The notes below the pieces were generated by a model. That model saw only the letters and a list, made by a program, of their open reading frames with translations. It was not told the origin of the DNA and searched no databases. Shown piece after piece: positions 214 through 26,171 of a stretch of DNA of 26,403 bases (the stretch's first letter is position 1; each line of letters opens with the position of its first letter). This DNA comes from a virus. Its lineage: Duplodnaviria; Heunggongvirae; Uroviricota; Caudoviricetes. The DNA lies in the IMG/VR virus record IMGVR_UViG_2690316269_000009, positions 1 to 26,403 of that record; one strand, given 5' to 3'. A program made the position numbers and the translations under genes.

Positions 214-412
214 AAATAAAGGGATAACGATGATAGTTTGAGAAAAACAGAAATAACACTTTTGTGGCAAAGCATGGTGCCGGGTGCCTCCCGGTGAATT
301 CAGTATCAGCACCTGAATCCGCGATTACCCCATATTCCTTCTTGCTGATTGCCCCACCGCACAGGGGGATTCACCATGCAGAAGTGTTTTTAATAAACAG
401 CAAACAAAAAAA

Positions 413-2369: not shown

Positions 2370-2381
2370 CAGTAACCTCTT

Positions 2382-3431: not shown

Positions 3432-3432
3432 G

Positions 3433-3711
3433 TTACCTCCAGATGCGTTGCTGGAATGTGCGAGACGGACGCGGTGGGCGTTCAGAGTAAGGAAGCCTGA
3501 CGGAGATTATCCAGTGACGGTAGTCGAGACTAAGGGCTTTCTTAACCTCGTATCCGCGCCTGCGGTAACACTGAATTGTCCATTCAGCCTGCTCTTCAGT
3601 ACATGGAGGGTGTTGGAACCATTCAGACTTGAATGCGTGAGAATACCGCTCGTGCGTGCAGGCAAGAACGGGCGAATTATCAGAATTGTAATATTTTACG
3701 TTGCGTGCCAT
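3433..3711 (-). CDS. Hypothetical small prophage protein (92 aa)
   Basis: ORF MARNVKYYNSDNSPVLACTHERYSHAFKSEWFQHPPCTEEQAEWTIQCYRRRGY...; stop abuts the start of the DUF968 gene. Family not recognised. Confidence 0.45.
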   Translation of the reverse strand: MARNVKYYNSDNSPVLACTHERYSHAFKSEWFQHPPCTEEQAEWTIQCYRRRGYEVKKALSLDYRHWIISVRLPYSERPPRPSRTFQQRIWR

Positions 3712-3777
3712 CGGTTTTCTCCGGTGGCACGGTGTTACTCAGCGGGAGTTCAGCCCCGCGCAAGATTGTAGATGAGT

Positions 3778-4029
3778 TTATTCTTCTGCAAAAGCTGAAA
3801 AGCCTGCTTTTATTCCGATCTCTTTCAGTGCCTGTAATGAAGTGACAAACTCACCTTCGCGCAAGATAAATCCGTCTGTCACTCGACCATCCACAAAATT
3901 AATTAACGCAGCCCCATTCTTTCGCAAACACATAATGCGGTAATGACTAACAAGATTTCCATTTTCAACGCACACAGCATAGAGGCCATCTTCACAAAAA
4001 ATTTTACGCAGTTCTTCGATGTTCATCAT
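3778..4029 (-). CDS. rem: Rem-like small prophage protein (83 aa)
   Basis: ORF MMNIEELRKIFCEDGLYAVCVENGNLVSHYRIMCLRKNGAALINFVDGRVTDGFILREGEFVTSLQALKEIGIKAGFSAFAEE; lies between hok and ydfU-like as in Qin. Confidence 0.55.
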   Translation of the reverse strand: MMNIEELRKIFCEDGLYAVCVENGNLVSHYRIMCLRKNGAALINFVDGRVTDGFILREGEFVTSLQALKEIGIKAGFSAFAEE

Positions 4030-4145
4030 CAGAATCCTTCCGGATAATTAGCTCTCCCCTTTAAGGGACCATCCCTCTTATCCCTGCGCGCTACTTAAGT
4101 ATTTTTGATTCTATTCCGGCGCCGTCCAGAACTTCAAACGCGTTG

Positions 4146-4177
4146 AAAATAAAAACAAAAACCCGCCGAAGCGGGTT
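4146..4177 (-). terminator. Rho-independent terminator (minus strand), likely 3' end of the hok transcript
   Basis: Minus strand reads acccgcttcggcgggtttttgtttttatttt: GC stem with tetraloop then T-rich tail, about 70 bp downstream of hok stop. Confidence 0.55.
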
Positions 4178-4245
4178 AAGTGCGGGTGCGTTGAGGATGC
4201 CTGCCACATCAGAGGTGGCGAGGGATTTCTCCCTCGCCGGGTCTC

Positions 4246-4401
4246 TTACTCCTCAGGTTCGTAAGCTGTGAAGACAGCGACCTCCGTCTGGCCGGTTCGG
4301 ATTCGTACCTCGCAGAGGTCTTTCCTCGTTACCAGTGTCGTCACTATGACGGTTAAACAGATGACGATCAGGGCGATTAACATCGCCTTTTGCTGCTTCA
4401 T
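4246..4401 (-). CDS. hokD: Hok-family type I toxin (HokD/RelF-like, 51 aa)
   Basis: MKQQKAMLIALIVICLTVIVTTLVTRKDLCEVRIRTGQTEVAVFTAYEPEE: single TM helix plus conserved C-terminus; an in-frame upstream extension to 4458 (MLDTCRLASYVPEGKEKQA) may be the mok-like leader. Confidence 0.8.
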   Translation of the reverse strand: MKQQKAMLIALIVICLTVIVTTLVTRKDLCEVRIRTGQTEVAVFTAYEPEE

Positions 4402-4714
4402 AGCCTGCTTCTCCTTGCCTTCCGGCACGTAAGAGGCTAACCTACATGTGTCTAGCATGAAATTGGCCTCAGATTAATGTTAAGCGTCTTGCAGGACGCG
4501 TAATGTTAACTGGGGCTTTTCTCTATCTGCCTTTGGTGTTCATGCCTGAGACAGATAGCCTCAAGCACCCGCAGCCATTCTACTTAACTCCCGTTACCCC
4601 GCCAATATGAAATCAGTCAGAAAGGCGATCCATAAGAATAATGAATTCTGTAAGGCAATAGTCTCACTGTCTAACATATCTTACCTGATTACTTTACAAT
4701 ATAATAATTCATAG

Positions 4715-5350
4715 TTAAATCAAATGAATGTCATCATCCAATAATTCATTAGTAGTAATACTACCTTTTTTGAAAAAATTTTCATTTGCCTCAGCAATTT
4801 TTGCATCATTAACAAATTCATCACACATCCCAAAATAATGAAAAAATCTATTTAGTTTACATATTCCAATGGTATAGTGCCCTTTAGGTGTTTTGTCCAC
4901 ATAAACACGATTTGCTTTTATAATATGCATCTCATAATCATCTATATGTGGATGAACGATGCGAAATGATGCAGATGCAGTTGGATAGTTTTTGCGCCGC
5001 CCCCCATTTATTACGGGTTCAAATAACACTTCATTTTTACCTTTGAATTCATTGCAGTCAGGACATACTACACATAGATTCTTAGGTTCAAAAATAAAAC
5101 ATAGATATTGAGATTTTGGCACAATATGCTCTATAGGAGCAGCTTGTGCAGCTCTTACCCCAATAGGCTCATGACAATATACACATTCTAGCTTTTGTTC
5201 TTCTCTGTAATGATTTCTAATTTCTGCACGGAGAACTTGCAAATCATCATCTCCCCAGTTGGTATGCTTAAAATCTGGAGAAGACAATTTTTTCTCAATA
5301 ATATCTAATGACTCTGCGCTGAATCTAATTGGATTTTTAATTTTTGGCAT
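4715..5350 (-). CDS. ptuB: HNH endonuclease, Septu PtuB-like (about 211 aa from ATG at 5350; alternative GTG at 5359)
   Basis: HNH signature CVYCHEP...IEHIVPKSQ...NLCVVCPDCNEFKG; start overlaps the 3' end of the upstream ATPase gene (operon coupling). Confidence 0.7.
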   Translation of the reverse strand: MPKIKNPIRFSAESLDIIEKKLSSPDFKHTNWGDDDLQVLRAEIRNHYREEQKLECVYCHEPIGVRAAQAAPIEHIVPKSQYLCFIFEPKNLCVVCPDCNEFKGKNEVLFEPVINGGRRKNYPTASASFRIVHPHIDDYEMHIIKANRVYVDKTPKGHYTIGICKLNRFFHYFGMCDEFVNDAKIAEANENFFKKGSITTNELLDDDIHLI

Positions 5351-6710
5351 AAATTTCACACACCTGAGATACGGAATTTACGAGTTCATTAATAGGGTCA
5401 TTACTATTAACGTTTTCAAGGAGAAGCTGGAGTTGTTTTAATTCACGCCAATTATCATCTGTTACTAACTTAGCAGTCTTAACTTTTGAAAGTAAATTGA
5501 AAGCTAATCTGGCAATGTATTCATTCATAATGCCAGGGGCATCAAATAGTTCCGCAAGTTGATAGTCTGCAGACCGGTTGCTAAAGTATTTTGCTTTATA
5601 AAGATAACTTTTCGACAAAGATGTTATATAACAACCTTTATTCGGCAAATTGGATATTATTTGTGGTGAATGAGTTGCAATTATGAATTGACAACCTGAG
5701 TAAGTTAAAAATGCTTTTGTTAACATAATGATAAACTCTTCCTGCCATCGAGGATGCAAGCTTATTTCCGGTTCATCAATTAGTATTATAGAACCATCAG
5801 TTATATGCCCTGCAATTCCAAGCAACATCACTAATAAACATTGTTCTCCCGAGCTCGCACGTTTAAGTGACATGGGACCATAGCTTTTTTTTATGAGTCG
5901 CATATCCATCAATCTCATGAAGCCAGCGTTCATAAGTTTAAGAATTGATCTAGAAAAATAATTATTCGCATAAGTCGAGCCAACCAATGTTTCACCATTG
6001 GTAAAATCGACTGACAAGGTTACAGCCCTACGTTCAGGTTCAAATCGATTAATTTCAACCAGTGCTTCGTAAATATCATGACGTGATTCGGAGTTTAACT
6101 TTAAGAGACTCTCAATATTCTTCCTGTCAATTTTTATATTGTATTTTAAATATAACTCCTTAACTTCCGTTAATATCTCATCTGAATATACACCAATGAA
6201 GTTATAGTCAGGAGTGTCCGGTCCGTTGTAAGTTGGTTTAAATACAAACTCTATATGGGGCTCAAAATCAATAGAATGAAAAACATCGAGTAAATTTGCA
6301 GGATTTTCTGAATAAGCAAGTTTCTCTAGCCAACCTCTCGCTGCTGAAGATAAAAGGGATACGGCATTTGATACGCCGAAGGGGCCTTCTCCACGCATAC
6401 CCACATAGCGATAATTATTTTCTTTCCTTTGGTGATTTAATGACCTACGCCCTGGAGGGAATTTATCGAATGGGCTGGTAGATACGGCAATTAACTTTGG
6501 TGTTATTTCTCTGTCAAATAATGGATTAAAAGTTTTCAAGAAATGAATATCTTGAATACAGTCTTTAGCAATCTGAGATAACAATCTGCTTTTTCCAACG
6601 CCATTTTTACCTACAATTACTGTAAAAATATTCGCATTATCAGAAACATCACCTTCTATAGCAAGTTTTAAGGTTCGACTATCATGATGGGTATAATATA
6701 GTCTTTTCAT
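5337..6710 (-). CDS. ptuA: AAA15/ABC-type ATPase, Septu PtuA-like (457 aa)
   Basis: Walker A VIVGKNGVGKS near N-terminus, long insertion, ABC signature-like LKRASSGEQ, Walker B ILIDEPEISLH, H-loop IIATHSPQI; ATG at 6708-6710. Confidence 0.7.
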   Translation of the reverse strand: MKRLYYTHHDSRTLKLAIEGDVSDNANIFTVIVGKNGVGKSRLLSQIAKDCIQDIHFLKTFNPLFDREITPKLIAVSTSPFDKFPPGRRSLNHQRKENNYRYVGMRGEGPFGVSNAVSLLSSAARGWLEKLAYSENPANLLDVFHSIDFEPHIEFVFKPTYNGPDTPDYNFIGVYSDEILTEVKELYLKYNIKIDRKNIESLLKLNSESRHDIYEALVEINRFEPERRAVTLSVDFTNGETLVGSTYANNYFSRSILKLMNAGFMRLMDMRLIKKSYGPMSLKRASSGEQCLLVMLLGIAGHITDGSIILIDEPEISLHPRWQEEFIIMLTKAFLTYSGCQFIIATHSPQIISNLPNKGCYITSLSKSYLYKAKYFSNRSADYQLAELFDAPGIMNEYIARLAFNLLSKVKTAKLVTDDNWRELKQLQLLLENVNSNDPINELVNSVSQVCEIYAKN

Positions 6711-7094
6711 TTTATTTTTCTCTCATTAAAATGCTCTTAATTAAGAATACCTATGCCTTTAACAGGCTCATAGTTATGATTTGTGATGCTTTCAAAAGGG
6801 TATGTAACTAAGTATTGAACTCTACACCTAAGATTCTAAGATTTTTAAATTAAAGTAGTTAAACATGCTTTTGATTGTACTCATTCTATGTCCATCGTTG
6901 CTGCATGTCTAGATATCGTGCCCCGCTATTGTTATGTAATGATATGATGGACGCCCTGTCTGAAGCAGCCAGTGAAATATTTTTACTGTCTGCGTTTTCT
7001 ACAGGAGTAAATCACATGAGCACAATCAGAGTTGTTGGTATTGATATTGACCTGTGCCCAATTTTTTGAGACATATATTGGTACGCTCTTGGCA

Positions 7095-7116
7095 CAGGGC
7101 TGCTGCTGCAGCCCTG
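7095..7116. repeat. Perfect 9-bp inverted repeat / hairpin (cagggctgc tgct gcagccctg) just past the recombinase remnant stop
   Basis: Read directly; no adjacent T-run, so not a classical intrinsic terminator; possible recombination site or transcript 3' structure. Confidence 0.4.
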
Positions 7117-7122
7117 ACAGCT

Positions 7123-7691
7123 TTAGACTTCGATCGATTCAGAGATCTCTAATGCATCATCAACTTCTATACCCAGATAACGAACTGTGCTTTCCGTTTT
7201 CTTATGGCCCAACGGAAGTTGGATCACCCGGAGATTCTTAGTTTTCTTGCAGACAAGGCAAGGTTTTGTTCTTCTCATGGAATGTGTGCTGTAAAGCGAA
7301 TCTTCGAGACCAAGCTTTTCTCCCCCCTATGAAAGATTCGGTTATATTGCAGGATTGATATGTGTTGGTTAGTACCGACCCGAGATCGGAACAAGTAGTC
7401 TTTACTGCGTAAATTGCCAAGCTTTATCAATGCAGAAACAGCTTCTCTTGTCCCTTTGGTTATCTCAAATTGGATAGGACTGCCAGTTTTTCAGTTGCAA
7501 CACCGTAGCTCTGCTTGAAACCGAGCTAAATCACGCGTTTTACCTTCCAGTTCAAGCCGGATTTGGAGCCCCCAGATATGAGATATCTGAAGTGGTCTTT
7601 TTGGGCCTATGATACTGTCTTTGTTCCTCGGTGACGTATTCATACTCAAATCTCCTGCAATGTGGAAGATTTGAGTATGGTTGTCTCTCAA
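7123..7691 (-). pseudogene. Degenerate tyrosine recombinase (phage-integrase family) remnant, split across at least three frames
   Basis: C-terminal frame reads ...KNLRVIQLPLGHKKTESTVRYLGIEVDDALEISESIEV* (LGH....T.RY catalytic-Tyr box); upstream frames give LFRSRVGTNQHISILQYNRIFHRG and ALQHTFHEKN with frameshifts and stops between. Confidence 0.45.
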
Positions 7692-7748
7692 GAGCGAAAT
7701 AGGTCAACTATAACTAGTTGTTGTGCATGTACGAATTCTGCCAATTAA

Positions 7749-8591
7749 TTATTGACAATAAAAAATTCTGGAATGTTCGAAATCATCATATCGAATTATA
7801 ATCTGGTTGACTGCATCTATTGTTGGCGCCATTTCAGTTATAATATCTCGATAACCTAAAGAGTTAAATACATTTACTAAGGCCTCACACCGTAGGCCAA
7901 TAGCAATTACGACATTATAAATTGCCAGCCGTTTATTTTCTTGTTTAACTGCAAGAGTGAGTTCGATAGCAGTAGTTTTATCGCTTTGGATTGCATTATA
8001 TAGAGATACTATATTTGCCATATCATCAGAGAATGTATGTATTGAATCACAAAGAGGGACGTAATAGGCATGATAGTGTGTTTCCCAGCCAATTACTTCG
8101 AAAAGCTTTTTGGTTCCAGGATATTCAGGTGTATTTGGCCACAATCTATTAAACATATCAGTTAGCTCTTTTCCGATACGAATCCTTTCATCTGCTGCTG
8201 GATTAGTCATTTCTTTGGATTTTAAACACTCCAGCCACCGTTTCCCATTACTATGAACTAATTTCTTACTACCCTTGAGTAATGCTTGTGCATTTTTTCC
8301 ATCATCAATTGCTATATAAAATTGATTGGCAGCCTGTTCCATTATAACTCTAGTTAATACTTCCGATGCTGAAAAGGCTCCGGTACTCAAAGAAAATATA
8401 GCCTGATTACTAAGTTCATTCAGTACATTAAAGTAATGTAAAACCATCAATTTTTGTTCCACCCCCTTTAGGTTATCTATTTTATTTTTATGCCTCTCAA
8501 ATTTCGCATGGATATATTTATTTATCGCGGCTATTTTTTTTACATCTTCGTCGAAATCAAACGGGCAACGTCCAAACGATTTTTTCCTCAT
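7749..8591 (-). CDS. Hypothetical protein (280 aa), unrecognised; candidate single-gene abortive-infection/defence factor
   Basis: Clean ORF with ATG at 8589-8591 and strong AGGAGG Shine-Dalgarno 6-8 nt upstream; AT-rich; same orientation as the ATPase/HNH pair. Confidence 0.6.
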   Translation of the reverse strand: MRKKSFGRCPFDFDEDVKKIAAINKYIHAKFERHKNKIDNLKGVEQKLMVLHYFNVLNELSNQAIFSLSTGAFSASEVLTRVIMEQAANQFYIAIDDGKNAQALLKGSKKLVHSNGKRWLECLKSKEMTNPAADERIRIGKELTDMFNRLWPNTPEYPGTKKLFEVIGWETHYHAYYVPLCDSIHTFSDDMANIVSLYNAIQSDKTTAIELTLAVKQENKRLAIYNVVIAIGLRCEALVNVFNSLGYRDIITEMAPTIDAVNQIIIRYDDFEHSRIFYCQ

Positions 8592-9030
8592 ATATTCCTC
8601 CTGTTTTACAATCTCCCATAAGTTGGAAAATTATACACTGGAGATTACCTATAAATAACTGCGCACGATAGCTAGTCAGTGCAAGAAGTACAACCAAGTG
8701 AACGGTGCGTATCAGATACCTAGCTTAAAGTTCGCGATAGCCGTACTCTGTGTATTAGCTCAGACATTACCTGACAGGTTGAGTAGATAGAATCGAATCA
8801 AAGCTGACAGTCTGGTTTGGACTGTGGGGTCAACCGATGGATGCAACACACAGCGATCTACAGACATTACTAACATAGCGGTGTATTAATCATCGGGGAG
8901 CAGATCAGACTAACATTAAGCATTAGTAGTAATTTGCAGAGCATCCGTTTCTTACACAAAGCAAACCCCCACGCTAGCCCAACCCTGTGCCACACAATGT
9001 CAATTCACATCTGAACTAATGCTCTTTAAT

Positions 9031-9305
9031 CTAGTAACGTCTAAAATATCGAACATTTCCCTGATAAAATGCCAGTATGCGCTGCATAACTTCACTCATT
9101 GTGGTGGTTTCTTCCGGCAGTTCTGCCTGCGCTGGCTGTTCCTGCTGAACGTTGTTATCAGCCACACGCCAGGTGTACGCGCTTTTATCAACAAAACCAG
9201 CCTTTTTCAGTTCCCATAGTTCGTTCAGCACTTCTTCACGCGCGCAGCAAGTTCTATGGATGTGGCTTTTCCCATTGCTTTCAGTGCGTCAAAAACAGTC
9301 TCCAT
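9031..9305 (-). pseudogene. Small prophage gene with -1 frameshift ([24 protein letters not shown] | [28 protein letters not shown]...)
   Basis: ATG at 9303-9305 with strong GGGAGG RBS; frame hits TGA after 26 codons while the protein-like reading continues in the -1 frame (track ORF 9031..9231). Shift maps to gtgaagaagtg. Confidence 0.45.
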
Positions 9306-9337
9306 AAATTTCCTCCCGGTAAAAATTACTTCTCAAC

Positions 9338-10003
9338 TCAGACAAGCCCAGCCGCTTTCCGGCGTTCATATTCCTGTTTCAGCAACTCAATTGGCGTTGG
9401 CCCCGACGGGCGTTTGGGTGCCGCCAGTTGTCGCCGGACTGGCGGAACACTCAGGCCGTTACTAACATGCTTTGCCCATTTCGTCAGCTGCCGTTCTGCA
9501 AGCCGTTTTAACTCCCCTTCGGTCATCTGCCGCTCAATCCCCTTTGAACGCATCTCGAGGCAAATGTGATACAGCACAGGCTGAGACCACGGGTATTTAT
9601 CGCTCCCGTCGTATCGCCAGGACTCGTTGCGCCAGCGACGGTACTCCTCCATCACGGCATCCACCGTCAGACCGAATGGATTGGCTCCGCTTTCAGAAAT
9701 CAGCGCCACAAACTCAGCCAGGTCCGGAGGCCATGTTTCACCCGCCCGGCAGCGGTCCATGCACTGGCGGCAGACCTGTCGGATTTTCTGCTCAGTCATC
9801 GCACCAATCTGTGCAATCCAGAGCTTCGAAGGTGCGGCCCCGTTCTTCTGGGTCCAGCGGTTCGAATAAACCTCCCCCATGAGTTCCCACAGCTTCCAGG
9901 CCGTTTCCGTCGCTGATAAATCCGTTTTCACGTTCCCACTGCTCACGTGCTGCCCGAATTTCCTGAACTGCCCGTGATGCGGTGTCACCTGGTGCTGCTG
10001 CAT
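9338..10003 (-). CDS. Replication protein P-like (helicase-loader family); true start uncertain because of overlap with upstream gene
   Basis: C-terminal two-thirds (FVALISESGANPFGLTVDAVMEEYRRWR...YPWSQPVLYHICLEMRSKG...ELKRLAERQLTKWAKHV) parallels lambda P as recalled; located 3' of the O-like gene. Confidence 0.6.
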   Translation of the reverse strand: MQQHQVTPHHGQFRKFGQHVSSGNVKTDLSATETAWKLWELMGEVYSNRWTQKNGAAPSKLWIAQIGAMTEQKIRQVCRQCMDRCRAGETWPPDLAEFVALISESGANPFGLTVDAVMEEYRRWRNESWRYDGSDKYPWSQPVLYHICLEMRSKGIERQMTEGELKRLAERQLTKWAKHVSNGLSVPPVRRQLAAPKRPSGPTPIELLKQEYERRKAAGLV

Positions 10004-10832
10004 GGTTTACCCCCTTGCTGACTGGTTTAACCTGCGCCCTGACGTGATTTACGTGACGGGCGAATTTCTGCTCCCACTGAATCTGCGTAAACACTTTCCC
10101 CTCAGCAGCCCAGTAGTCCCGGAAGGCGGCAAGTTCAGCAGGTGTGAATTCTGTCTCCGGCAAAGCCATCCCCCACAACGCAGCCCGTCGTCGAAAATCC
10201 CGTGACGGATACCAGCTATCGGTCATCGGAAATTTTTCGATGGGTTCGCTCAGGCCATCCAGGAATACAGGAGGTGCAGCCTGTAACGACAAAACTTTCT
10301 GCTCACTGGTCGGAGCACTCTCGCGTGCGTTATGTGTGGGGTTTAGCTCTTTGGGTTCCTTTGGGTTCCGTGATCCGTTTTTGGGTGTCTTTGATGGAAA
10401 ATTTGGGTGTCTTTGGTTATTTTCCATGCAGCTAAGAGTTCCGTTTTTGGGTCTGTTTTGTGCTGAAACATAACCATTTTCGGTACTGTTTTTATTAACA
10501 GCACCGATTTTACCCACCTTTAAAGACTCCCGTTTTTGGGTGTATTCAGGCTCGGCAACACTTTCTTCTACACCGATAAGTCGGTACACCACAATTTGCT
10601 TTGTTCTGCCTTTTCTCTCACCGGTATCAACAATTAACCCAATCTCCATCAGGTGTCGTAAGCTGTCCTGCACAGTCTTTTTGTTCAGTTCCGTTACTTC
10701 TGCCAGTGCAGATACAGACGGGTATGCACACAAATCGGCACCGCACATATCAGCAAGCCAGGTCAATACAGACTTACTGGATGAACTGCCGGTTTTCACC
10801 TTTTTAGCCCATCGTAGTGCATCGATACTCAT
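9792..10832 (-). CDS. Phage replication initiation protein (N-terminal winged-helix, DnaT-like C-terminal region); start placed at MSIDALRWAKK
   Basis: N-terminus MSIDALRWAKKVKTGSSSSKSVLTWLADMCGADLCAYPSVSALAEVTELNKKTVQDSLRHLMEIGLIV is HTH-like; C-terminal FTPAELAAFRDYWAAEGKVFTQIQWEQKFARHVNHV resembles DnaT-like domains; AGGGG RBS before ATG 10830-10832. Confidence 0.6.
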   Translation of the reverse strand: MSIDALRWAKKVKTGSSSSKSVLTWLADMCGADLCAYPSVSALAEVTELNKKTVQDSLRHLMEIGLIVDTGERKGRTKQIVVYRLIGVEESVAEPEYTQKRESLKVGKIGAVNKNSTENGYVSAQNRPKNGTLSCMENNQRHPNFPSKTPKNGSRNPKEPKELNPTHNARESAPTSEQKVLSLQAAPPVFLDGLSEPIEKFPMTDSWYPSRDFRRRAALWGMALPETEFTPAELAAFRDYWAAEGKVFTQIQWEQKFARHVNHVRAQVKPVSKGVNHAAAPGDTASRAVQEIRAAREQWERENGFISDGNGLEAVGTHGGGLFEPLDPEERGRTFEALDCTDWCDD

Positions 10833-11355
10833 ACGAACCCCTGGCAGACATTTGTTTATCTGCAAAGTAATATTGATATTGCTGACGATACGCATGCTTG
10901 AAAGCAATAGCTTTTTCTATAAGCTCGTCAGTCTCACGTTCCACAACAGATGGATCCGCAAAAAGCAGCCCGGACTCCACCACATCGCCATATTCTTTGT
11001 TTAATCCGGCGATCATGTACGTAATGCTTTTTCCATCACTGATCTCACGATACAGCCTGAAATCACTAATTCGGATAGCCTCCATAATTGCCGGAATCAG
11101 CGCCGTGAATTTTTTCCGCTTATCCCTGGTGTCGATAGCTTTCCAGCGTTCGAATATCTTCACCCGGTTAACGCACAGCGCCCGTTGATCAACCTCGCCA
11201 TCATTAAACGTGACGCGTTGAACATCGATGTTCGGGCGTTCTTTCAGAGCCCAGAATGCTTCCGTGATTAATATCGTCGCCTGCTCCTGTGTCATTCCTG
11301 GTCGGCATACCCAGGCATCCAGAGCCTCACAAACCTGTTCAGGGGTGATTTTCAT
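10804..11355 (-). CDS. Hypothetical early-region protein (183 aa), cII-position, possibly YdaT-like
   Basis: Clean ORF between the cro-like gene and the replication gene; family assignment is a guess from position. Confidence 0.45.
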   Translation of the reverse strand: MKITPEQVCEALDAWVCRPGMTQEQATILITEAFWALKERPNIDVQRVTFNDGEVDQRALCVNRVKIFERWKAIDTRDKRKKFTALIPAIMEAIRISDFRLYREISDGKSITYMIAGLNKEYGDVVESGLLFADPSVVERETDELIEKAIAFKHAYRQQYQYYFADKQMSARGSYEYRCTTMG

Positions 11356-11566
11356 TGTTCAACCGCCCCGCCCGCTTTGCCTTACGATATTCGTCATAAA
11401 CTTTGGGGTCGTACTGAAGTTCCCCGCCGGATGCCTCTTGCAGGCGCATCGCGCGACCTTCAGGAACCAGTTCCCCCCATTGAGAAACAGCAGATGGATC
11501 AACACCAGCAGCTTTCGCTACTTTGGCTTTCGTCCCATAAAAATTAATTACGTCTGATTTAAACAT
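11339..11566 (-). CDS. dicC: Cro-like regulator, DicC-like (75 aa from MFKSDVINFYG...)
   Basis: Small HTH protein (TKAKVAKAAGVDPSAVSQWG) transcribed divergently from the repressor gene; C-terminus ...EGRAMRLQEASGGELQYDPKVYDEYRK matches recalled DicC. Confidence 0.65.
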   Translation of the reverse strand: MFKSDVINFYGTKAKVAKAAGVDPSAVSQWGELVPEGRAMRLQEASGGELQYDPKVYDEYRKAKRAGRLNNENHP

Positions 11567-11643
11567 TACCCCTCCAAAGTTGAGTTTTCTCAATAGTAAT
11601 CACTCAAGGAATCTCAAGTCAAGGGTTATTAAGATATCTAAAT
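11567..11643. promoter_or_regulatory. Divergent promoter/operator region of the immunity switch
   Basis: 77-bp gap between divergent genes containing palindrome ttgagttttctcaa (11580-11593) and repeated ctcaag half-sites (cactcaaggaatctcaagtcaagg). Confidence 0.45.
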
Positions 11644-12051
11644 ATGAACGAGAAAACTTTAGGTCAACGAATTAGAGAAAGACGCAAACAGGTTGGTTTA
11701 AGTCAAAACGATTTAAGCAAAGCTGCTGGCGTATCTGGCTCATCAATTTCACTATGGGAAAGCGACCATACAGCCCCGCGCGGGCAAAATTTGCATCGCC
11801 TGGCTGAGGTATTGCAATGTTCACCAACTTGGATACTGTTTGGTGACGAGGATAAAACACCAGATCCACCAGTTGCACTCAACAGCGCCTTAGACTTATC
11901 GGAAGATGAGTTGGAGATGTTGCGATTGTATCGCGCACTTCCAAAATCAGAGCAGCAAGCACAAATCAGCGAACTCCGTGCCCGCGTTGAGAATTTTAAT
12001 CGCCTATTCACCGAGCTACTAGAAGCTCGCAAACGTAACAAACATCAATAA
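11644..12051 (+). CDS. dicA: XRE-family HTH repressor, DicA-like (135 aa)
   Basis: N-terminal HTH (LGQRIRERRKQVGLSQNDLSKAAGVSGSSISLWE) and segment LQCSPTWILFGDEDK match the recalled DicA pattern; ATG at 11644. Confidence 0.75.
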   Translation: MNEKTLGQRIRERRKQVGLSQNDLSKAAGVSGSSISLWESDHTAPRGQNLHRLAEVLQCSPTWILFGDEDKTPDPPVALNSALDLSEDELEMLRLYRALPKSEQQAQISELRARVENFNRLFTELLEARKRNKHQ

Positions 12052-12242
12052 CCCCCCTTCACAAATTTTAAAGCCTTACATTTCAATGTATTGGCTTTAT
12101 TTTGCATTAAATATTGAGTTTTATCATCAAAAGCACTTGACCAATATTCATGAGAAAACTAAATTACGATCCATCAAGACACCGCACGGTGTTCTCAGCA
12201 AACAGTTCCGCTACCCCGGCGTTAAGGGGAAATGAGGTCAAC

Positions 12243-12398
12243 ATGGATACTATCGATCTTGGCAACAGCGAATCTCTGGTATGTGGCGTGTTCCCCAACC
12301 AGGACGGTACGTTCACCGCGATGACGTATACCAAAAGCAAAACGTTTAAAACCGAATCTGGAGCGCGTCGCTGGCTGGAAAGAAATTCAGGTGGGTGA
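12243..12398 (+). CDS. ydfA: Small prophage protein, YdfA-like (51 aa, DUF1391-type)
   Basis: MDTIDLGNSESLVCGVFPNQDGTFTAMTYTKSKTFKTESGARRWLERNSGG within the 12150-12398 ORF; position right after dicA-like. Confidence 0.55.
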   Translation: MDTIDLGNSESLVCGVFPNQDGTFTAMTYTKSKTFKTESGARRWLERNSGG

Positions 12399-12399
12399 T

Positions 12400-12528
12400 A
12401 TGGATTTCGACACAATCATGGAAAAGGCTTACGAAGAATACTTCGAAGGTCTTGCCGAAGGCGAAGAAGCTCTCAGCTTCAGCGAATTTAAACAGGCACT
12501 TTCCAGTTCGGCAAAATCTAACGGCTGA
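12400..12528 (+). CDS. ydfB: Small prophage protein, YdfB-like (42 aa)
   Basis: ATG at 12400; MDFDTIMEKAYEEYFEGLAEGEEALSFSEFKQALSSSAKSNG; below the 60-aa cutoff of the ORF track, read directly. Confidence 0.55.
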   Translation: MDFDTIMEKAYEEYFEGLAEGEEALSFSEFKQALSSSAKSNG

Positions 12529-12557
12529 TAAGCGAAACAGCACCGCGAGGAATCAGT

Positions 12558-12776
12558 ATGCAGAAACGAGAACCCGTCATCATCGCGCCAGACTATACCG
12601 ATGATGAACTTTATGAGTGGATGCGCCAGAAAATTAATGCAGCGCAGGATCTGAAATGGGCCAATGAAGCCAGGGCTAAGCAGGCTGAAAATCTGTCCGC
12701 TCTGGAGCAGGATATCACTAATCTGGAAAAAGCAGCGACATTAAGCATTGCCAGAATGATTACATACCCGCGTTAA
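12558..12776 (+). CDS. ydfC: Small prophage protein, YdfC-like (72 aa)
   Basis: Clean ORF MQKREPVIIAPDYTDDELYEWMRQKINAAQDLKWANEARAKQAENLSALEQDITNLEKAATLSIARMITYPR in dic-operon position. Confidence 0.55.
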   Translation: MQKREPVIIAPDYTDDELYEWMRQKINAAQDLKWANEARAKQAENLSALEQDITNLEKAATLSIARMITYPR

Positions 12777-13117
12777 TAGCTAACCAACGAAGCTAAGGTT
12801 GGTAATTAAGGAGTTCTCCACGGATGAGGTGGAGTGCGTGCGCCGGACACGGGTGAGCATCCGGCACTGACAGTTTACTGAAAGGATATTTCCCTGAAAA
12901 GTCAGACCATAACGCGAAAGCGCACGGCGAGGTAGCTGGTTCATAGATAGCCTGTCGTTAAATTTTCGTCGACCGTGCGCTTCCGGTTGTGGCAATCCGC
13001 GAAATGGCGCGGCGGTAAGTATGGCGGGGTTATTCCTTCCCCCGTTGAGGACACCGGGTTGTCAGGTTGACCATACGCTTAAGTGACAACCCCGCTGCAA
13101 CGCCCTCTGTTATCAAT

Positions 13118-13175
13118 TTTCTGGTGACGTTTGGCGGTATCAGTTTTACTCCGTGACTGCTCTGCCGCCCTTTTT
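13118..13175 (+). ncRNA. dicF: DicF small regulatory RNA (ftsZ-targeting sRNA of dic-type prophages)
   Basis: tttctggtgacgtttggcggtatcagttttactccgtgactgctctgccgccc + ttttt matches the DicF sequence as recalled, including terminal GGCGG/CCGCC hairpin and U-tail; sits upstream of dicB. Confidence 0.7.
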
Positions 13176-13344
13176 AAAGTGAATTTTGTGATGTGGTGAA
13201 TGCGGCTGAGCGCACGCGGAACAGTTAAAACCAAAAACAGTGTTATGGGTGGATTCTCTGTATCCGGCGTTAATTGTTAACTGGTTAACGTCACCTGGAG
13301 GCACCAGGCACTGCATCACAAAATTCATTGTTGAGGACGCGATA

Positions 13345-13533
13345 ATGAAAACGTTATTACCAAACGTTAATACGTCTGAAGGTTGTTTTGAAATTGGTGT
13401 CACTATCAGTAACCCAGTATTTACTGAAGATGCCATTAACAAAAGAAAACAAGAACGGGAGCTATTAAATAAAATATGCATTGTTTCAATGCTGGCTCGT
13501 TTACGTCTGATGCCAAAAGGATGTGCACAATGA
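13345..13533 (+). CDS. dicB: Cell-division inhibitor DicB (62 aa)
   Basis: MKTLLPNVNTSEGCFEIGVTISNPVFTEDAINKRKQERELLNKICIVSMLARLRLMPKGCAQ; ATG at 13345; directly downstream of DicF. Confidence 0.8.
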   Translation: MKTLLPNVNTSEGCFEIGVTISNPVFTEDAINKRKQERELLNKICIVSMLARLRLMPKGCAQ

Positions 13534-13691
13534 ATTCAGCATTTGTGCTTGTTCTGACAGTTTTTCTTGTTTCCGGAGAGCCAGTTGATATTGCAGTCAG
13601 TGTTCACAGGACAATGCAGTAGTGTATGACTGCAGCAACCGAACAGAAAATTCCCGGTAACTGTTACCCGGTCGATAAAGTTATTCACTAG
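13530..13691 (+). pseudogene. ydfD: YdfD-like small membrane protein interrupted by in-frame TAG at 13620-13622
   Basis: ATG overlaps dicB stop (ATGA); reads MNSAFVLVLTVFLVSGEPVDIAVSVHRTMQ*CMTAATEQKIPGNCYPVDKVIH*, i.e. one amber codon inside an otherwise continuous reading. Confidence 0.45.
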
Positions 13692-13813
13692 GATAATATC
13701 GAAATCCCGGCAGGTCTTTAAAACAGTTCCGTAATAAATATCCGGTTTCATTCTTATATGCCAGCAATGGCAGGGATTTGTTCATCCTTAAATCTGTCAT
13801 GAGGTTAAAACAA

Positions 13814-16285
13814 ATGAGTAAAGTCTTTATTTGCGCCGCTATTCCTGACGAACTGGCAACAAGGGAAGAAGGCGCTGTGGCTGTAGCCACAGCCATTGAA
13901 GCTGGCGACGAACGCCGTGCTCGAGCAAAATTTCACTGGCAATTCCTGGAACATTATCCGGCTGCTCAGGACTGCGCTTATAAATTTATTGTCTGCGAGG
14001 ATAAACCTGGCATACCCCGCCCTGCCCTCGATTCATGGGATGCTGAATATATGCAGGAAAACCGCTGGGATGAGGATTCTGCTTCTTTTGTCCCGGTTGA
14101 GACTGAATCCGATCCGATGAACGTCACTTTTGACAAGCTGGCCCCTGAAGTACAGAACGCTGTCATGGTTAAGTTCGACACATGTGAAAACATCACCGTT
14201 GATATGGTGATTAGCGCACAGGAATTGTTGCAGGAAGACATGGCAACATTCGACGGACATATCGTTGAAGCGTTGATGAAAATGCCAGAAGTTAACGCCA
14301 TGTATCCGGAGCTTAAGCTGCATGCCATCGGGTGGGTTAAGCATAAATGTAAGCCTGGTGCCAAATGGCCCGAAATTCAGGCAGAGATGCGCATCTGGAA
14401 AAAACGTCGCGAAGGTGAACGCAAGGAAACCGGAAAATACACGTCTGTTGTTGATCTCGCCCGCGCCAGAGTCAATCAACAGCACACTGAAAATTCAACA
14501 GGAAAAATCAGCCTGGTCATTGCTGCCATTCATCGCGAATACAAGCAGACATGGAAAACACTGGATGACGAACTGGCCTACGCTCTCTGGCCTGGTGATG
14601 TGGATGCCGGAAACATTGACGGCAGCATCCATCGCTGGGCAAAAAATGAAGTTATCGACAACTACCGCGAAGACTGGAAGCGTATCTCGGCATCAATGCG
14701 CAAACAGCCTGATGCCCTTCGCTACGACCGCCAGACTATTTTTGGCCTTGTCCGTGAACGTCCGATCGACATTCACAAAGACCCTGTGGCACTGAACAAA
14801 TACATTACTGAATACCTGACTACAAAGGGCGTGTTTGAAGATGAAGGAACAAATCAGAGCGCAACTGATACTCTCTCGTCGCCAGTACCAGAAACTGATG
14901 CAGTGGAAACGGCAATTCCGGACAACGAAAAAACCGAATGCAAAGTGGAAGTCGAACCATCTGTAGAGCGTGAGGGGCCGTTCTACTTCCTCTTCACCGA
15001 CAAGGATGGCGAAAAATACGGTCGCGCAAACAAACTTTCTGGTCTGGATAAGGCACTGGCTGCCGGGGCTACTGAAATCACGAAAGAAGAATATTTCGCC
15101 CGCAAAAACGGTACATACTCAGGTTCACAACAAAATACTGGTGCATCTGACACGACCGCACAACCAGAGCCGGTAAAAGTTACCGCTGACGAAGTAAACA
15201 AAATTATGCAGGCAGCCAATATCAGCCAGCCTGACGCCGATAAGTTGCTTGCTGCCTCTCGCGGAGAATTTGTTGCAGGGATTAGCGACCCGAATGATCC
15301 GAAATGGGTTAAGGGGATCCAGACCCGCGATTCTGTAAACCAGAACCAGCATGAATCGGAACGGAACTACCAAAAAGCGGAACAAAACAGCCCAAATGCG
15401 TTACAAAACGAGCCAGAAACGAAACAGCCTGAACCAGTGGCGCAACAGGAAGTGGAAAAAGTCTGCACCGCCTGCGGTCAGACCGGCGGCGGCAACTGCC
15501 CTGATTGTGGCGCGGTGATGGGCGACGCAACATACCAGGAAACATTCGATGAAGAGTATCAGGTTGAAGTTCAGGAAGATGATCCGGAGAAAATGGAAGG
15601 CGCTGAACATCCACACAAGGAGAACACTGGCGGCAATCAGCATCACGATAGCGATAATGAAACTGGCGAGACGGCAGATCACTCAATTAAGGTGAACGGT
15701 CATCAAGAAATCACATCCACCAGCAGGACGTGTGACCATCTAATGATCGACCTTGAAACCATGGGAAAAAATCCTGATGCCCCGATCATCTCAATAGGTG
15801 CAATATTTTTCGATCCGCAAACCGGAGATATGGGACCGGAATTTAGTAAGACTATCGATCTGGAAACTGCTGGCGGAGTCATTGATCGGGACACCATTAA
15901 ATGGTGGCTTAAGCAATCACGCGAAGCGCAATCTGCCATTATGACCGATGAAATCCAGTTAGATGATGCACTGTTACAATTGCGGGAATTTATCGACGAA
16001 AACTCCGGTGAATTTTTTGTTCAGGTCTGGGGAAATGGAGCCAACTTCGACAACACGATTTTGCGCCGTTCATACGAACGGCAGGGGATCCCCTGCCCGT
16101 GGCGTTACTACAACGATCGCGATGTACGCACAATCGTTGAGCTGGGGAAAGCCATAGACTTCGATGCCAGAACGGCTATTCCATTCGAAGGTGAGCGCCA
16201 TAATGCACTTGATGACGCCCGTTACCAGGCAAAATACGTTTCAGTTATCTGGCAAAAACTGATCCCGAGTCAGGCTGATTTTTAA
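13814..16285 (+). CDS. Large early-operon exonuclease (about 823 aa) with C-terminal DEDDh (DnaQ-like) 3'-5' exonuclease domain
   Basis: ATG at 13814 with GAGG RBS; C-terminus has Exo I MIDLETMG, Exo II VWGNGANFD, Exo III HNALDDARYQ; acidic linker with Cys4 ribbon CTACGQTGGGNCPDCG. Confidence 0.7.
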   Translation: MSKVFICAAIPDELATREEGAVAVATAIEAGDERRARAKFHWQFLEHYPAAQDCAYKFIVCEDKPGIPRPALDSWDAEYMQENRWDEDSASFVPVETESDPMNVTFDKLAPEVQNAVMVKFDTCENITVDMVISAQELLQEDMATFDGHIVEALMKMPEVNAMYPELKLHAIGWVKHKCKPGAKWPEIQAEMRIWKKRREGERKETGKYTSVVDLARARVNQQHTENSTGKISLVIAAIHREYKQTWKTLDDELAYALWPGDVDAGNIDGSIHRWAKNEVIDNYREDWKRISASMRKQPDALRYDRQTIFGLVRERPIDIHKDPVALNKYITEYLTTKGVFEDEGTNQSATDTLSSPVPETDAVETAIPDNEKTECKVEVEPSVEREGPFYFLFTDKDGEKYGRANKLSGLDKALAAGATEITKEEYFARKNGTYSGSQQNTGASDTTAQPEPVKVTADEVNKIMQAANISQPDADKLLAASRGEFVAGISDPNDPKWVKGIQTRDSVNQNQHESERNYQKAEQNSPNALQNEPETKQPEPVAQQEVEKVCTACGQTGGGNCPDCGAVMGDATYQETFDEEYQVEVQEDDPEKMEGAEHPHKENTGGNQHHDSDNETGETADHSIKVNGHQEITSTSRTCDHLMIDLETMGKNPDAPIISIGAIFFDPQTGDMGPEFSKTIDLETAGGVIDRDTIKWWLKQSREAQSAIMTDEIQLDDALLQLREFIDENSGEFFVQVWGNGANFDNTILRRSYERQGIPCPWRYYNDRDVRTIVELGKAIDFDARTAIPFEGERHNALDDARYQAKYVSVIWQKLIPSQADF

Positions 16286-16343
16286 TGTTCAACCCTAATT
16301 GCCGCTAACCGTATATAGTTAGCGGCGGTTATGAGATATAGCT

Positions 16344-16547
16344 ATGAGCAACTTATTTTTAACCGAAGATGAATTGCTAATATTAACGGGCTGCAAATAT
16401 GCAAGCCACCAGCGAAAATGGTTAACGGAAAACGGGCTTCCGTTCTATACCAATCGTAGTGGCAAACCGATTGTCAGCCGGGATCTATTTACCTGCAATA
16501 AAACTTTACCACCACGCGAGGTAGAGCCGAATTTTGGTGCAATCTAA
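16344..16547 (+). CDS. Excisionase-like protein (67 aa)
   Basis: Small ORF immediately upstream of int with stop/start overlap (TAATG at 16545-16549). Confidence 0.55.
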   Translation: MSNLFLTEDELLILTGCKYASHQRKWLTENGLPFYTNRSGKPIVSRDLFTCNKTLPPREVEPNFGAI

Positions 16548-17572
16548 TGGGAAGACGAAGGAAAAATCCTGAACACGAAAAACTACCTCCAAATGTATAC
16601 CCAAATAAATATAGTTATGTATGGAAACCAACATCCAGAGAATCTGTCACACTAACCGCCATCAAGGATGGTTTAGCTGCTTTATGGAAAAAGTATGAGG
16701 AAACTGTAAATAATCGCGATCGTGCAATGACATTCGGTCGCTTGTGGGAAAAATTCCTCGCCAGCGCCTATTACAGTGACCTCAGTCCAAGAACACAAAA
16801 AGATTATCTGCAACATCAAAAAAAGTTGCTTGCCGTATTCGGTAAGGTGCCGGCAGATTCCATAAAACCAGAACACATCCGTCGATACATGGACAAGAGA
16901 GGGGAACAGAGTAAAACGCAAGCCAACCATGAAAAAAGCAGTATGTCCCGCGTTTACAGTTGGGGGTATGAGCGAGGGTACGTGAAGGCTAACCCATGTG
17001 CAGGTGTAAGTAAATTCAAGGCCAAAAACCGCGAACGATATGTAACCGACAAAGAATACCAGGCAGTATTAAGCGTTGCACCTCTTCCTGTTTTTATCGC
17101 AATGGAAATTGCCTATCTGTGTGCAGCGAGGGTTTCCGATGTGTTATCGCTGAAATGGGAGCAGATTGGAAACGACGGAATCTTTATCCAGCAAGGGAAA
17201 ACAGGAAAAAAACAGATAAAAGCATGGAGTCCACGATTACAGGCGGCGATCGAAAAAGCAAAACAGTTACCAACATCCGCCTATGTAATCAGTAATCAAT
17301 ACGGCAACCGATATATGTACAAAGGCTTTAACGAAATGTGGGTAGAAGCAAGAAATCGCGCAGGCAAAATTTCAGGTATTTTAACCGACTTCACCTTTCA
17401 TGATCTGAAGGCGAAAGGAATTTCAGACTATGAAGGAAGCAGTCGGGATAAGCAACTTTTCTCTGGTCACAAAACCGAGGGGCAAGTGCTAATCTATGAC
17501 AGGAAGGTTAAAGTTTCACCGACACTTGATGTCCCGTTACCTGAAAATATTCCAAGAAAATATTCCAAGTAA
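16547..17572 (+). CDS. Tyrosine site-specific integrase (phage integrase family, 341 aa)
   Basis: Typical size and tyrosine-recombinase organisation; ends 53 bp from the 3' end of tRNA-Ser. Confidence 0.85.
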   Translation: MGRRRKNPEHEKLPPNVYPNKYSYVWKPTSRESVTLTAIKDGLAALWKKYEETVNNRDRAMTFGRLWEKFLASAYYSDLSPRTQKDYLQHQKKLLAVFGKVPADSIKPEHIRRYMDKRGEQSKTQANHEKSSMSRVYSWGYERGYVKANPCAGVSKFKAKNRERYVTDKEYQAVLSVAPLPVFIAMEIAYLCAARVSDVLSLKWEQIGNDGIFIQQGKTGKKQIKAWSPRLQAAIEKAKQLPTSAYVISNQYGNRYMYKGFNEMWVEARNRAGKISGILTDFTFHDLKAKGISDYEGSSRDKQLFSGHKTEGQVLIYDRKVKVSPTLDVPLPENIPRKYSK

Positions 17573-17624
17573 TTCCAAGTGTGATTTTTGTCACTGACTT
17601 AATGATGTATAAGTGATTGAATTT

Positions 17625-17714
17625 TGGCGGAGAGAGGGGGATTTGAACCCCCGGTGGAGTTGCCCCCACTCCGGTTTTCGAGACCGGTCCGTTCAGCCGC
17701 TCCGGCATCTCTCC
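17625..17714 (-). tRNA. serU: tRNA-Ser (anticodon CGA)
   Basis: Minus strand reads ggagagatgccggagcggctgaacggaccggtctcgaaaaccggagtgggggcaactccaccgggggttcaaatccccctctctccgcca: cloverleaf with long variable arm, anticodon loop ctCGAaa, 3' CCA. Confidence 0.85.
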
Positions 17715-17807
17715 GTTCAGATGGTTGCCATGATGCCAGGAAATTTGGCATTTTAACAGTCCCTGTCCGTGCAATTTTGTTCAAGTGACGAGTTTGCGAG
17801 CAAAACG

Positions 17808-18605
17808 ATGATTAAGTGGCCCTGGAAAGTACAAGAATCAGCACATCAAACTGCCCTTCCCTGGCAGGAAGCACTATCGATCCCCCTTTTAACGTGTCTG
17901 ACGGAACAGGAACAAAGCAAATTAGTCACTCTTGCCGAACGTTTTTTACAGCAAAAGCGGCTTGTTCCTTTACAGGGCTTTGAACTGGATTCATTAAGAA
18001 GCTGCCGGATAGCACTTCTATTTTGCCTACCCGTTCTGGAGTTAGGACTGGAATGGCTGGATGGTTTTCATGAAGTCTTAATTTATCCTGCGCCATTTGT
18101 GGTCGATGATGAATGGGAAGACGATATCGGTCTGGTGCATAACCAACGTATTGTTCAGTCAGGTCAGAGCTGGCAGCAAGGGCCTATCGTTTTGAACTGG
18201 TTGGATATACAAGATTCTTTTGATGCTTCTGGTTTTAACCTGATTATTCATGAAGTCGCTCATAAGCTGGACACCCGTAACGGCGATCGCGCCAGCGGAG
18301 TTCCCTTTATTCCGTTGCGTGAGGTTGCTGGCTGGGAACACGATCTTCATGCTGCAATGAACAACATTCAGGAAGAAATCGAATTGGTTGGCGAGAATGC
18401 GGCGAGCATTGATGCTTATGCTGCCAGTGATCCTGCTGAATGTTTTGCCGTACTTTCTGAATATTTCTTTAGCGCCCCAGAACTTTTTGCTCCTCGTTTC
18501 CCTTCATTGTGGCAACGTTTCTGCCAATTTTATCAACAAGATCCTTTGCAGAGACTGCATCGCACTAATGATACAGACTCGTTTTCGGCGACGAATGTTC
18601 ATTAA
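17808..18605 (+). CDS. mtfA: Mlc titration factor A (MtfA, zinc-dependent peptidase, 265 aa)
   Basis: Starts [22 protein letters not shown]...; contains HEVAH zinc-binding motif; length matches the start at ATG 17808. Confidence 0.85.
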
Positions 18606-18705
18606 TTAACAACTTTGCAGATTAATTAACCAATTGAAATGACTTATGAAATTTAGTGTTGACAGACAAGGTACCGCTAAGTAATATGCGCCCCGTTCAC
18701 ACGAT

Positions 18706-18781
18706 TCCTCTGTAGTTCAGTCGGTAGAACGGCGGACTGTTAATCCGTATGTCACTGGTTCGAGTCCAGTCAGAGGAGCCA
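18706..18781 (+). tRNA. asnT: tRNA-Asn (anticodon GUU)
   Basis: tcctctgtagttcagtcggtagaacggcggactGTTaatccgtatgtcactggttcgagtccagtcagaggagcca: canonical 76-nt tRNA with CCA. Confidence 0.9.
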
Positions 18782-18870
18782 AATTCTAAAAATTCGCTTT
18801 TTTAGCGCAATGTCACTGACCTTAGTTGAACATTGTTTTTTAACGGATAGCGGGTTTTTAACATCTTAAG

Positions 18871-18901: not shown

Positions 18902-19094
18902 GCTATGAACGCCATCACCATTTTCCCCTCGATTATAAAACTTGAGTTATTCAGTAGTCTCCCCTCTTGCAACTCACACTCAAAACTGCCTAACGAAAAG
19001 TTATTAATTTTCAATCATATTGCTATCAGGATTTACATTTTTTCGCTGTGCTAGAAAGGGCGCATTTATGTTAGCTCGTTCAGGGAAGGTAAGC

Positions 19095-26171
<7,077 letters not shown>

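Follow-up and report, generated by a model that had tools for sequence, protein, structure and literature searches.

A dic-type immunity and cell-division-inhibition module with a repressor-operator cassette other than that of Qin in a serU-integrated Escherichia coli prophage

In Escherichia coli K-12, the dicAC-dicBF locus of the Qin prophage (b1569-b1576) encodes two toxic regulators of division, metabolism and phage entry, namely the small RNA DicF and the protein DicB. The operon promoter, dicBp, is repressed by DicA and derepressed by the antirepressor Rem, DicA and DicC constitute a bistable switch, and a stable 53-nt DicF is produced by RNase III/RNase E processing of the operon transcript (PMC10448788). 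The targets of DicF have been described (PMC5069750), and DicB is known to turn MinC against the FtsZ ring and to cause a ManYZ-dependent block of phage entry (PMC10448788, PMC5069750). The dicBF genes are found in different prophages, with several copies per genome (PMC5069750; PMC7873438), and an O157:H7 study used yet another dicC allele (PMC6915034). Since DicF and DicB are toxic, the behaviour of a strain depends on which repressor controls each copy. Then, which repressor allele governs a given dic-type locus? Here, we consider positions 11339-13691 of the IMG/VR virus record IMGVR_UViG_2690316269_000009, whose whole length of 26,403 nt is referred to as the window. The window is a piece of E. 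coli chromosome, the first 17.6 kb of which comprise the early and immunity regions of a lambdoid prophage.

An earlier reading of the sequence alone (the sequence-only reading) had described this stretch as a complete dic-type module that reproduces the Qin locus, with a divergent DicC-like/DicA-like pair followed by ydfA, ydfB and ydfC, DicF and dicB. All of these are indeed present, in that order and on those strands, and the gene order is that of the Qin dic locus. The reading is therefore supported by the sequence comparisons, with one substantive correction, that is, the immunity half is not the Qin allele. In its general plan the locus resembles lambda cI/cro and P22 c2/cro, in which a divergent repressor/Cro pair encloses about three operators and more are located at the leftward promoter, and also the lambdoid immunity regions in general, where cassettes are exchanged as units among otherwise similar phages. 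Unlike in lambda and P22, however, the repressor has no detectable relation to the C-terminal domains of cI and c2, and the operator sequence in the window is allele-specific.

Repressor, Cro-like protein and the exchanged cassette

From 12172 to 14580, that is, from the dicBp start through ydfABC, dicF, dicB and ydfD into ydfE, the window is 98.0% identical to Qin at the DNA level. On the other side, the stretch from 11076 to 11476 is 88.5% identical. Between them, only one 67-nt block (77.6%) of the 695 bp at 11477-12171 could be aligned to Qin. The homology stops at 11476 and resumes at 12172, which is about the expected transcription start of dicBp, and the intervening segment spans the N-terminus of the Cro-like protein, the intergenic operators, the whole repressor gene and the dicBp promoter with its operators. 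The sequence shows that the repressor, the operators and the Cro N-terminus have been exchanged as a unit, and the copy in the window carries another allele than Qin. Consequently, the likeness to K-12 Qin claimed by the sequence-only reading stands for 12172-14580 and partly for 11076-11476, but fails for 11477-12171, where there is almost no nucleotide similarity. The proteins follow the same division, since DicB and YdfB are 100% identical to their K-12 counterparts, YdfC 98.6% and YdfA 92%, while the DicC-like protein reaches 71% and the DicA-like protein only 54%.

The repressor gene (11644-12051, + strand) encodes 135 amino acids and belongs to the DicA subfamily, with a score of 238.3 bits against NCBIfam NF007257 (cut-off 101) over residues 1-135 of 135. 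Its Pfam domains are of the helix-turn-helix type only (N-terminal HTH_3), with no S24 peptidase or self-cleavage domain, and in this respect it is like DicA and the Gifsy-type repressors, which are short and lack self-cleavage domains (PMC10448788). The helix-turn-helix has diverged, and the region of the recognition helix reads GSSISLWESD here versus HVSVSQWERG in K-12 DicA. By contrast with this divergence, a 16-residue island, VLQCSPTWILFGDEDK, is perfectly conserved between both repressor alleles.

The Cro-like regulator (11339-11566, - strand, 75 amino acids) belongs to the DicC subfamily, scoring 167.6 bits against NCBIfam NF007282 (cut-off 130) and 64 bits against Pfam P22_Cro, PF14549 (cut-off 30.2). 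It is a mosaic, in which the N-terminal 30 residues, the DNA-binding part, have diverged while the C-terminal 46 amino acids are almost identical to DicC. A longer, TTG-initiated open reading frame (ORF) of 84 amino acids was considered as well and rejected as an over-extension; the 75-residue start is preferred, with its ATG at 11566 after the Shine-Dalgarno sequence GGAGG. Both the repressor and the Cro-like protein pass the NCBIfam and Pfam models, and therefore the names DicA-like and DicC-like are justified at the family level. The name dicA, however, can conceal different immunity specificities. Next to the Cro-like gene, in the position of cII, there is a full-length YdaT-family gene of 183 amino acids (10804-11355, - strand; Pfam YdaT_toxin), the product of which is 84.5% identical to YdfX across the 96 amino acids left in Qin.

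Candidate operators and promoters

The spacer between the divergent Cro-like and repressor genes is 77 bp long and contains three candidate operators, which are spaced 24 and 25 bp apart. The palindromic operator proposed by the sequence-only reading is found here as the perfect 5-4-5 palindrome TTGAGTTTTCTCAA at 11580-11593, which overlaps the -10 and start of the Cro-like promoter and is a candidate binding site. It is located at the position of the K-12 operator Oc, TTGTTAGTCATAACTAACAA, and is invariant across five prophages, while both of its flanks vary. The candidate PR-like promoter of the Cro-like gene, predicted by a consensus scan (9/12), lies at 11593-11622 on the - strand, with TTGACT and TACTAT separated by 18 nt. 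Within the spacer of this promoter is the candidate middle operator TCAAGGAATCTCAA (11604-11617), the centre of which is 24 bp from the first site; with one mismatch to TTRAGN4CTMAA, it is the weakest of the candidate sites. The repressor-proximal candidate TTAAGATATCTAAA (11629-11642) is a palindrome that matches TTRAGN4CTMAA exactly, abuts the repressor start codon, and is located at the position of the K-12 site called Oa.

Two further candidates of the OL type are located on the other side of the repressor gene, around dicBp, the PL-like promoter of the ydfABC-dicF-dicB operon. According to a consensus scan, dicBp occupies 12137-12165 on the + strand, with TTGACC and TAAATT separated by 17 nt, and its -35 block CACTTGACC is common to the window and K-12 in an alignment of the repressor-ydfA spacers. 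Upstream of the dicBp -35 is the candidate operator TTGAGTTTTATCAT (12114-12127), whose counterpart in the K-12 alignment is TGTTAGCTATAGCATACA. Among the four related prophages, three have TTGAGTTTTCTCAT at this site, and the O157:H7 ompW prophage has TTGAGCTTTCTCAT. The second candidate, ATGAGAAAACTAAA (12150-12163), overlaps both the -10 of dicBp and its spacer, and corresponds to TGTTAGTCATGGCTAATC in K-12; it does not vary among the five prophages, in contrast to the adjacent part of the spacer.

With up to two mismatches allowed, TTGAGTTTTCTCAA is matched only in the two regulatory regions. The core AGTTTTMTC occurs five times versus 0.54 expected, and four of the five occurrences are within the cassette. 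In the five prophages, whose cassettes are 90-100% identical, the sites are constant and the flanks vary, the sole changes being the single-base variants in the OL site at 12114-12127. The candidate operators may thus be taken as likely binding sites of the repressor, a call for which we rely on their position, on two sites that match exactly, on the AGTTTTMTC core and on the conservation seen in closely related cassettes.

Could this repressor still read the operators of K-12? In K-12, the binding of DicA to Oc is lost upon a change of one base in the operator (PMC3441716). When Oc was searched as TGTTAGTN4ACTAACA with up to three mismatches, no match was found in the whole window, and shared immunity with Qin was rejected on this result. 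Judged by the Oc motif, the aligned operators and the recognition helix, the DNA specificity would differ from that of K-12 DicA in this sequence test. Because no Oc-type site is present and different sites occupy the same positions, the copy is most likely heteroimmune to Qin and to K-12 DicA.

The dicBF operon, its proposed control and rival explanations

Downstream of dicBp, the operon begins with ydfA (12243-12398, + strand, 51 amino acids; Pfam DUF1391), ydfB (12400-12528, +, 42 amino acids) and ydfC (12558-12776, +, 72 amino acids). The 5' leader at 12172-12242 is kept both in Qin and in a Rac-like prophage with different downstream genes. A cis-acting antiterminator or riboregulator in this leader was considered and rejected, as only two short hairpins are present, the fold is not above that of shuffled sequences (z -1.25), and there is no Rfam match. 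After ydfC, an untranslated spacer with the DicF precursor (12777-13117, +) is 99% identical to that of K-12, and by homology the RNase III cut yielding the 190-nt species would be near 12981 of the window (scheme in PMC10448788).

DicF itself is located at 13118-13170 on the + strand by alignment with K-12 (13119-13170 by Rfam) and is identical to K-12 at 53 of 53 positions, among them the seed regions for pairing with ftsZ and further targets. It scores 76.7 bits against Rfam RF00039 (gathering score 48, E 1.5e-15), covering the full model (1-52) with zero non-canonical pairs, and contains the terminator hairpin, followed by TTTTT. In fact, from about 80 nt upstream of DicF through the terminator to the dicB start codon, the whole 300 nt are base-for-base identical to K-12. 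The dicB gene (13345-13533, +) encodes a 62-amino-acid cell-division inhibitor identical to K-12 DicB at 62 of 62 residues, with full-length matches of 136.8 bits to Pfam PF05358 (cut-off 27) and 132.8 bits to NCBIfam NF049927 (cut-off 100). From this 100% identity to a characterised protein, DicB would be expected to inhibit the FtsZ ring in a MinC-dependent manner, and the statement of the sequence-only reading that derepression would inhibit division can be kept in the same sense, as it rests on the identity of DicF and DicB to experimentally shown K-12 products.

In a permissive Rfam scan of 11300-13800, DicF was accompanied only by an STnc100-like match under the threshold and by a spurious microRNA match. 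The STnc100-like match is located between DicF and the dicB start (13168-13377, +), at 34.4 bits below the gathering score of 47.

The gene after dicB is ydfD, a lysis protein gene, which is a pseudogene here (13530-13721, +). Its frame is otherwise 97% identical to K-12 and is interrupted by two in-frame stops at codons 31 and 54 of the 63 codons of the intact frame; a near-identical genome annotates an internal stop. The end at 13691 given by the sequence-only reading is about 160 nt beyond dicB, within this pseudogene, and its word complete holds for the elements it listed, which are all present, but not for ydfD, nor perhaps for the integrase, the orthologue of which is flagged as frameshifted by RefSeq. 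The next gene of the same leftward operon encodes a full-length exonuclease (13814-16285, +; Pfam Rv2179c-like 3'-5' exoribonuclease domain). This is the intact counterpart of the K-12 pseudogene ydfE, which is disrupted by IS2, and the Qin homology reaches 14580, where IS2 interrupts K-12. With the PADLOC defence-system models, no match was obtained for DicB, the exonuclease or the YdaT-family protein.

Taken as a whole, the stretch very probably represents the immunity region and the leftward early (PL-type) operon of a serU-integrated lambdoid prophage, in which inhibitors identical to those of K-12 are placed under a swapped repressor/operator cassette, and the module is real and probably functional. 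The short repressor, with no RecA-cleavable domain, most likely binds operators of the TTGAG-N4-CTCAA type and, when bound, would shut both promoters, as three sites in the divergent region are located over the Cro-like promoter and two flank or overlap the -35 and -10 of dicBp. Repression might be lifted by an antirepressor, for instance the co-resident Rem, by stress, or by a spontaneous flip of the switch that is reinforced by the Cro-like protein; antirepressor control of the Gifsy type would apply to the window allele by analogy. Then dicBp would yield a ydfA-ydfB-ydfC-dicF-dicB(-exonuclease...) transcript, the expression and processing of which presumably follow the K-12 scheme, so that RNase III and RNase E would free the 53-nt DicF to pair with the ftsZ, xylR, pykA and manX mRNAs and to repress ftsZ and metabolic mRNAs, while DicB would recruit MinC to the division ring, leading to filamentation, and would block phage entry via ManYZ.

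Could the module instead share the immunity of Qin, with a diverged DicA and DicC still reading the K-12 operators and co-regulated with any Qin-type copy in the cell? Both proteins clear the cut-offs of the NCBIfam DicA and DicC subfamilies, the architecture and the promoter -35 are common, and the C-terminal halves and the VLQCSPTWILFGDEDK island are conserved. However, the absence of an Oc-type motif, the unrelated sequences at the aligned operator positions, the different recognition-helix regions and the sensitivity of K-12 DicA binding to a single Oc base change make this highly improbable. It is also very unlikely that the module is a silent relic, decaying, never expressed at a meaningful level and simply hitch-hiking in the prophage. 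Such a view could refer to the two stops in ydfD, the integrase orthologue flagged as frameshifted, a pseudogenised DUF1627 gene and an integrase fragment annotated in the same prophage, as well as to the fact that dicBp is off in most K-12 cells (PMC10448788). On the other hand, all other ORFs are intact, and DicF, the terminator and DicB do not differ from their functional K-12 counterparts. Prophages whose cassettes are 90-100% identical have kept the operators and the promoter -35, and in K-12, DicF builds up in stationary phase in spite of repression (PMC10448788).

It is possible, if somewhat doubtful, that the prophage is a still-inducible temperate phage, in which ydfABC-dicF-dicB contribute to the phage's own early lytic programme (host take-over or superinfection exclusion, for instance) and not to host physiology. 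In the window, Q and the replication genes of the O/P type are intact, the serU prophage of the closest genome has its lysis, head and tail genes in a complete lambda-like set, and isolated phage genomes such as HannyBb, mEp460_ev081 and Tritos bear the same module. But the other prophage end and the structural genes are beyond the window, and the integrase may be defective; besides, this explanation concerns the state of the whole prophage and is compatible with a swapped cassette controlling K-12-identical inhibitors.

Several observations weigh against our preferred account of the swapped cassette and its circuit. The ydfD pseudogene and the integrase orthologues labelled as frameshifted by RefSeq in two near-identical genomes indicate that some decay has already begun. 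The motif TTRAGN4CTMAA is not enriched window-wide (12 matches versus 7.1 expected), and it is for this reason that the operator call relies on position, exact matches, core and conservation; moreover, the divergent intergenic region is mostly invariant in the five-prophage set, which limits the resolution of the footprint there. The remaining points concern Rem, which derepresses dicBp in K-12 (PMC10448788). A rem homologue is located at 3778-4029 (- strand), outside 11339-13691 but belonging to the same regulatory circuit, with 96.4% amino acid identity to K-12 Rem, and rem is annotated in a near-identical genome. Rem is thus 96% identical, against no more than 54% between the repressor and DicA, and in an O157:H7 prophage whose repressor is identical, rem is missing from the corresponding position; therefore, Rem may not be the cognate inducer here.

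Upstream of rem no LexA box was found, the only CTGT-N8-ACAG of the window being inside a replication gene and at chance level, and SOS control of rem was rejected on this ground. The VLQCSPTWILFGDEDK island is possibly a contact for a shared antirepressor. That Rem is a cross-immunity antirepressor, acting on heteroimmune repressor alleles, is a tentative and rather unlikely idea. If Rem docks on VLQCSPTWILFGDEDK, several heteroimmune dicBF copies of a cell could be induced simultaneously by a single antirepressor, and independently repressed prophages would be coupled into one response. In a weaker version, the dicBF copies of multi-copy strains may be independently regulated, each being attached to a different immunity cassette.

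Relatives, distribution and the serU end

The distribution was explored in 5426 complete E. coli genomes. With matches well above what chance would produce (megablast, E = 0), the 2353-nt stretch is matched in part in 4756 of them, and 504 cover at least 80% of it. The cassette alone is present in 797 genomes and the K-12 cassette in 851, that is, the window allele is about as common as that of K-12. It occurs elsewhere with 90-100% DNA identity and 96-100% amino acid identity of the repressor, for example at ompW of O157:H7 and O91, at the Qin site beside rspB with dicBF, and in a Rac-like prophage with kilR and recET but without dicBF. The isolated phage genomes noted above are among those that carry the module. 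Near-identical copies have been deposited and annotated in hundreds of genomes, and this is an ordinary, widespread E. coli prophage module that is already known, so that its importance is small beyond correct annotation and nothing in it is outside known biology. Nevertheless, since K-12-identical inhibitors are found under a different repressor/operator allele, the K-12 results on DicA, Oc, temperature effects and possibly Rem should not be carried to the window copy untested.

Qin and the window element agree in gene order and strands, the dicBp -35 and the operator positions, and both have rem and hokD upstream. Apart from the cassette, they differ in that Qin is next to ynfP/rspB while the window element is at serU/mtfA, that ydfD is a pseudogene in the window, and that the exonuclease (ydfE), the YdaT-family gene, the O/P-like genes and the integrase ORF are full-length in the window but truncated or missing in Qin. 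The O157:H7 ompW prophage (PPompW-type; PV15-279, NZ_AP018488.1) has a repressor (WP_001003379.1) and a Cro-like protein (WP_000476986.1) that are 100% identical to those of the window, in a cassette of 98.4% DNA identity, followed by ydfA/B/C, dicB, a DUF1482 gene, the exonuclease, xis and int. It is distinguished by its own integrase and ompW attachment (att) site, another DicB allele (WP_000450222.1), an extra small ORF after ydfC, and a RelE/ParE pair in place of rem.

The closest genome is that of ESBL 15 (NZ_CP041678.1), the serU prophage of which is 99.6% identical at the DNA level over 2032-18785 of the window (16.7 kb) and 99.9% identical over 11339-13691, with the same insertion, in which the prophage is followed by serU-mtfA-tRNA-Asn. 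At 958-2032 of the window, however, ESBL 15 has another Q gene together with tRNA-Arg, tRNA-Arg and tRNA-Ile, and from this comparison the Q region reads as another mosaic joint. Beyond tRNA-Asn, there is an integrase and a type VI secretion island in ESBL 15 versus an inverse autotransporter in the window. The ESBL 15 prophage (examined in 1917000-1962000 of that genome) is a full lambda-like element with lysis, head and tail genes, sodC and lom, and its cargo of type III effectors comprises nleB2, nleC (partial), nleH (frameshifted) and nleF.

As the sequence-only reading had proposed, the prophage is at tRNA-Ser(CGA) and not at the Qin site. The tRNA gene, serU, is located at 17625-17714 (- strand) according to ARAGORN, the Rfam tRNA model and the annotation of a near-identical genome, and the integrase ORF directly adjoins it. 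The different neighbourhood mentioned in that reading is real, but the serU context is not unusual, since the DicF-dicB-exonuclease-int-serU stretch is covered by at least 80% in 816 genomes. The integrase-proximal end of the prophage is at or in the 3' end of serU, and the other end is beyond the window. After the exonuclease, a DUF4224 gene (16344-16547, +; Pfam DUF4224) precedes the tyrosine integrase ORF (16547-17572, +, 341 amino acids; Pfam Phage_integrase). The latter retains the catalytic tyrosine motif LIYDRK and has HDLK where tyrosine recombinases usually have H-x-L-R.

In addition, several other loci were noted in the window. A Septu anti-phage pair was identified by PADLOC on the - strand, with PtuA at 5337-6710 (549 bits) and PtuB at 4715-5359 (278 bits). 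It is inside the early-right region of the prophage, beside a DUF5677 gene (7749-8591, -) and a degenerate integrase fragment (about 7123-7643), and has the appearance of a small island inserted there. At 4246-4570 (-) there is a hokD/sok toxin-antitoxin locus of type I, with a sok match of 117 bits in Rfam and a HokD 98% identical to that of K-12, and an STnc100 small RNA with a full match (100.8 bits) is located at 236-408 (-), downstream of the Q antiterminator gene. Finally, serU is followed by mtfA, tRNA-Asn and, beyond the latter and outside the prophage, a YeeJ-like inverse-autotransporter gene (19020-26171, +), which encodes 2383 amino acids with an IAT_beta domain and 13 Big_1 repeats.

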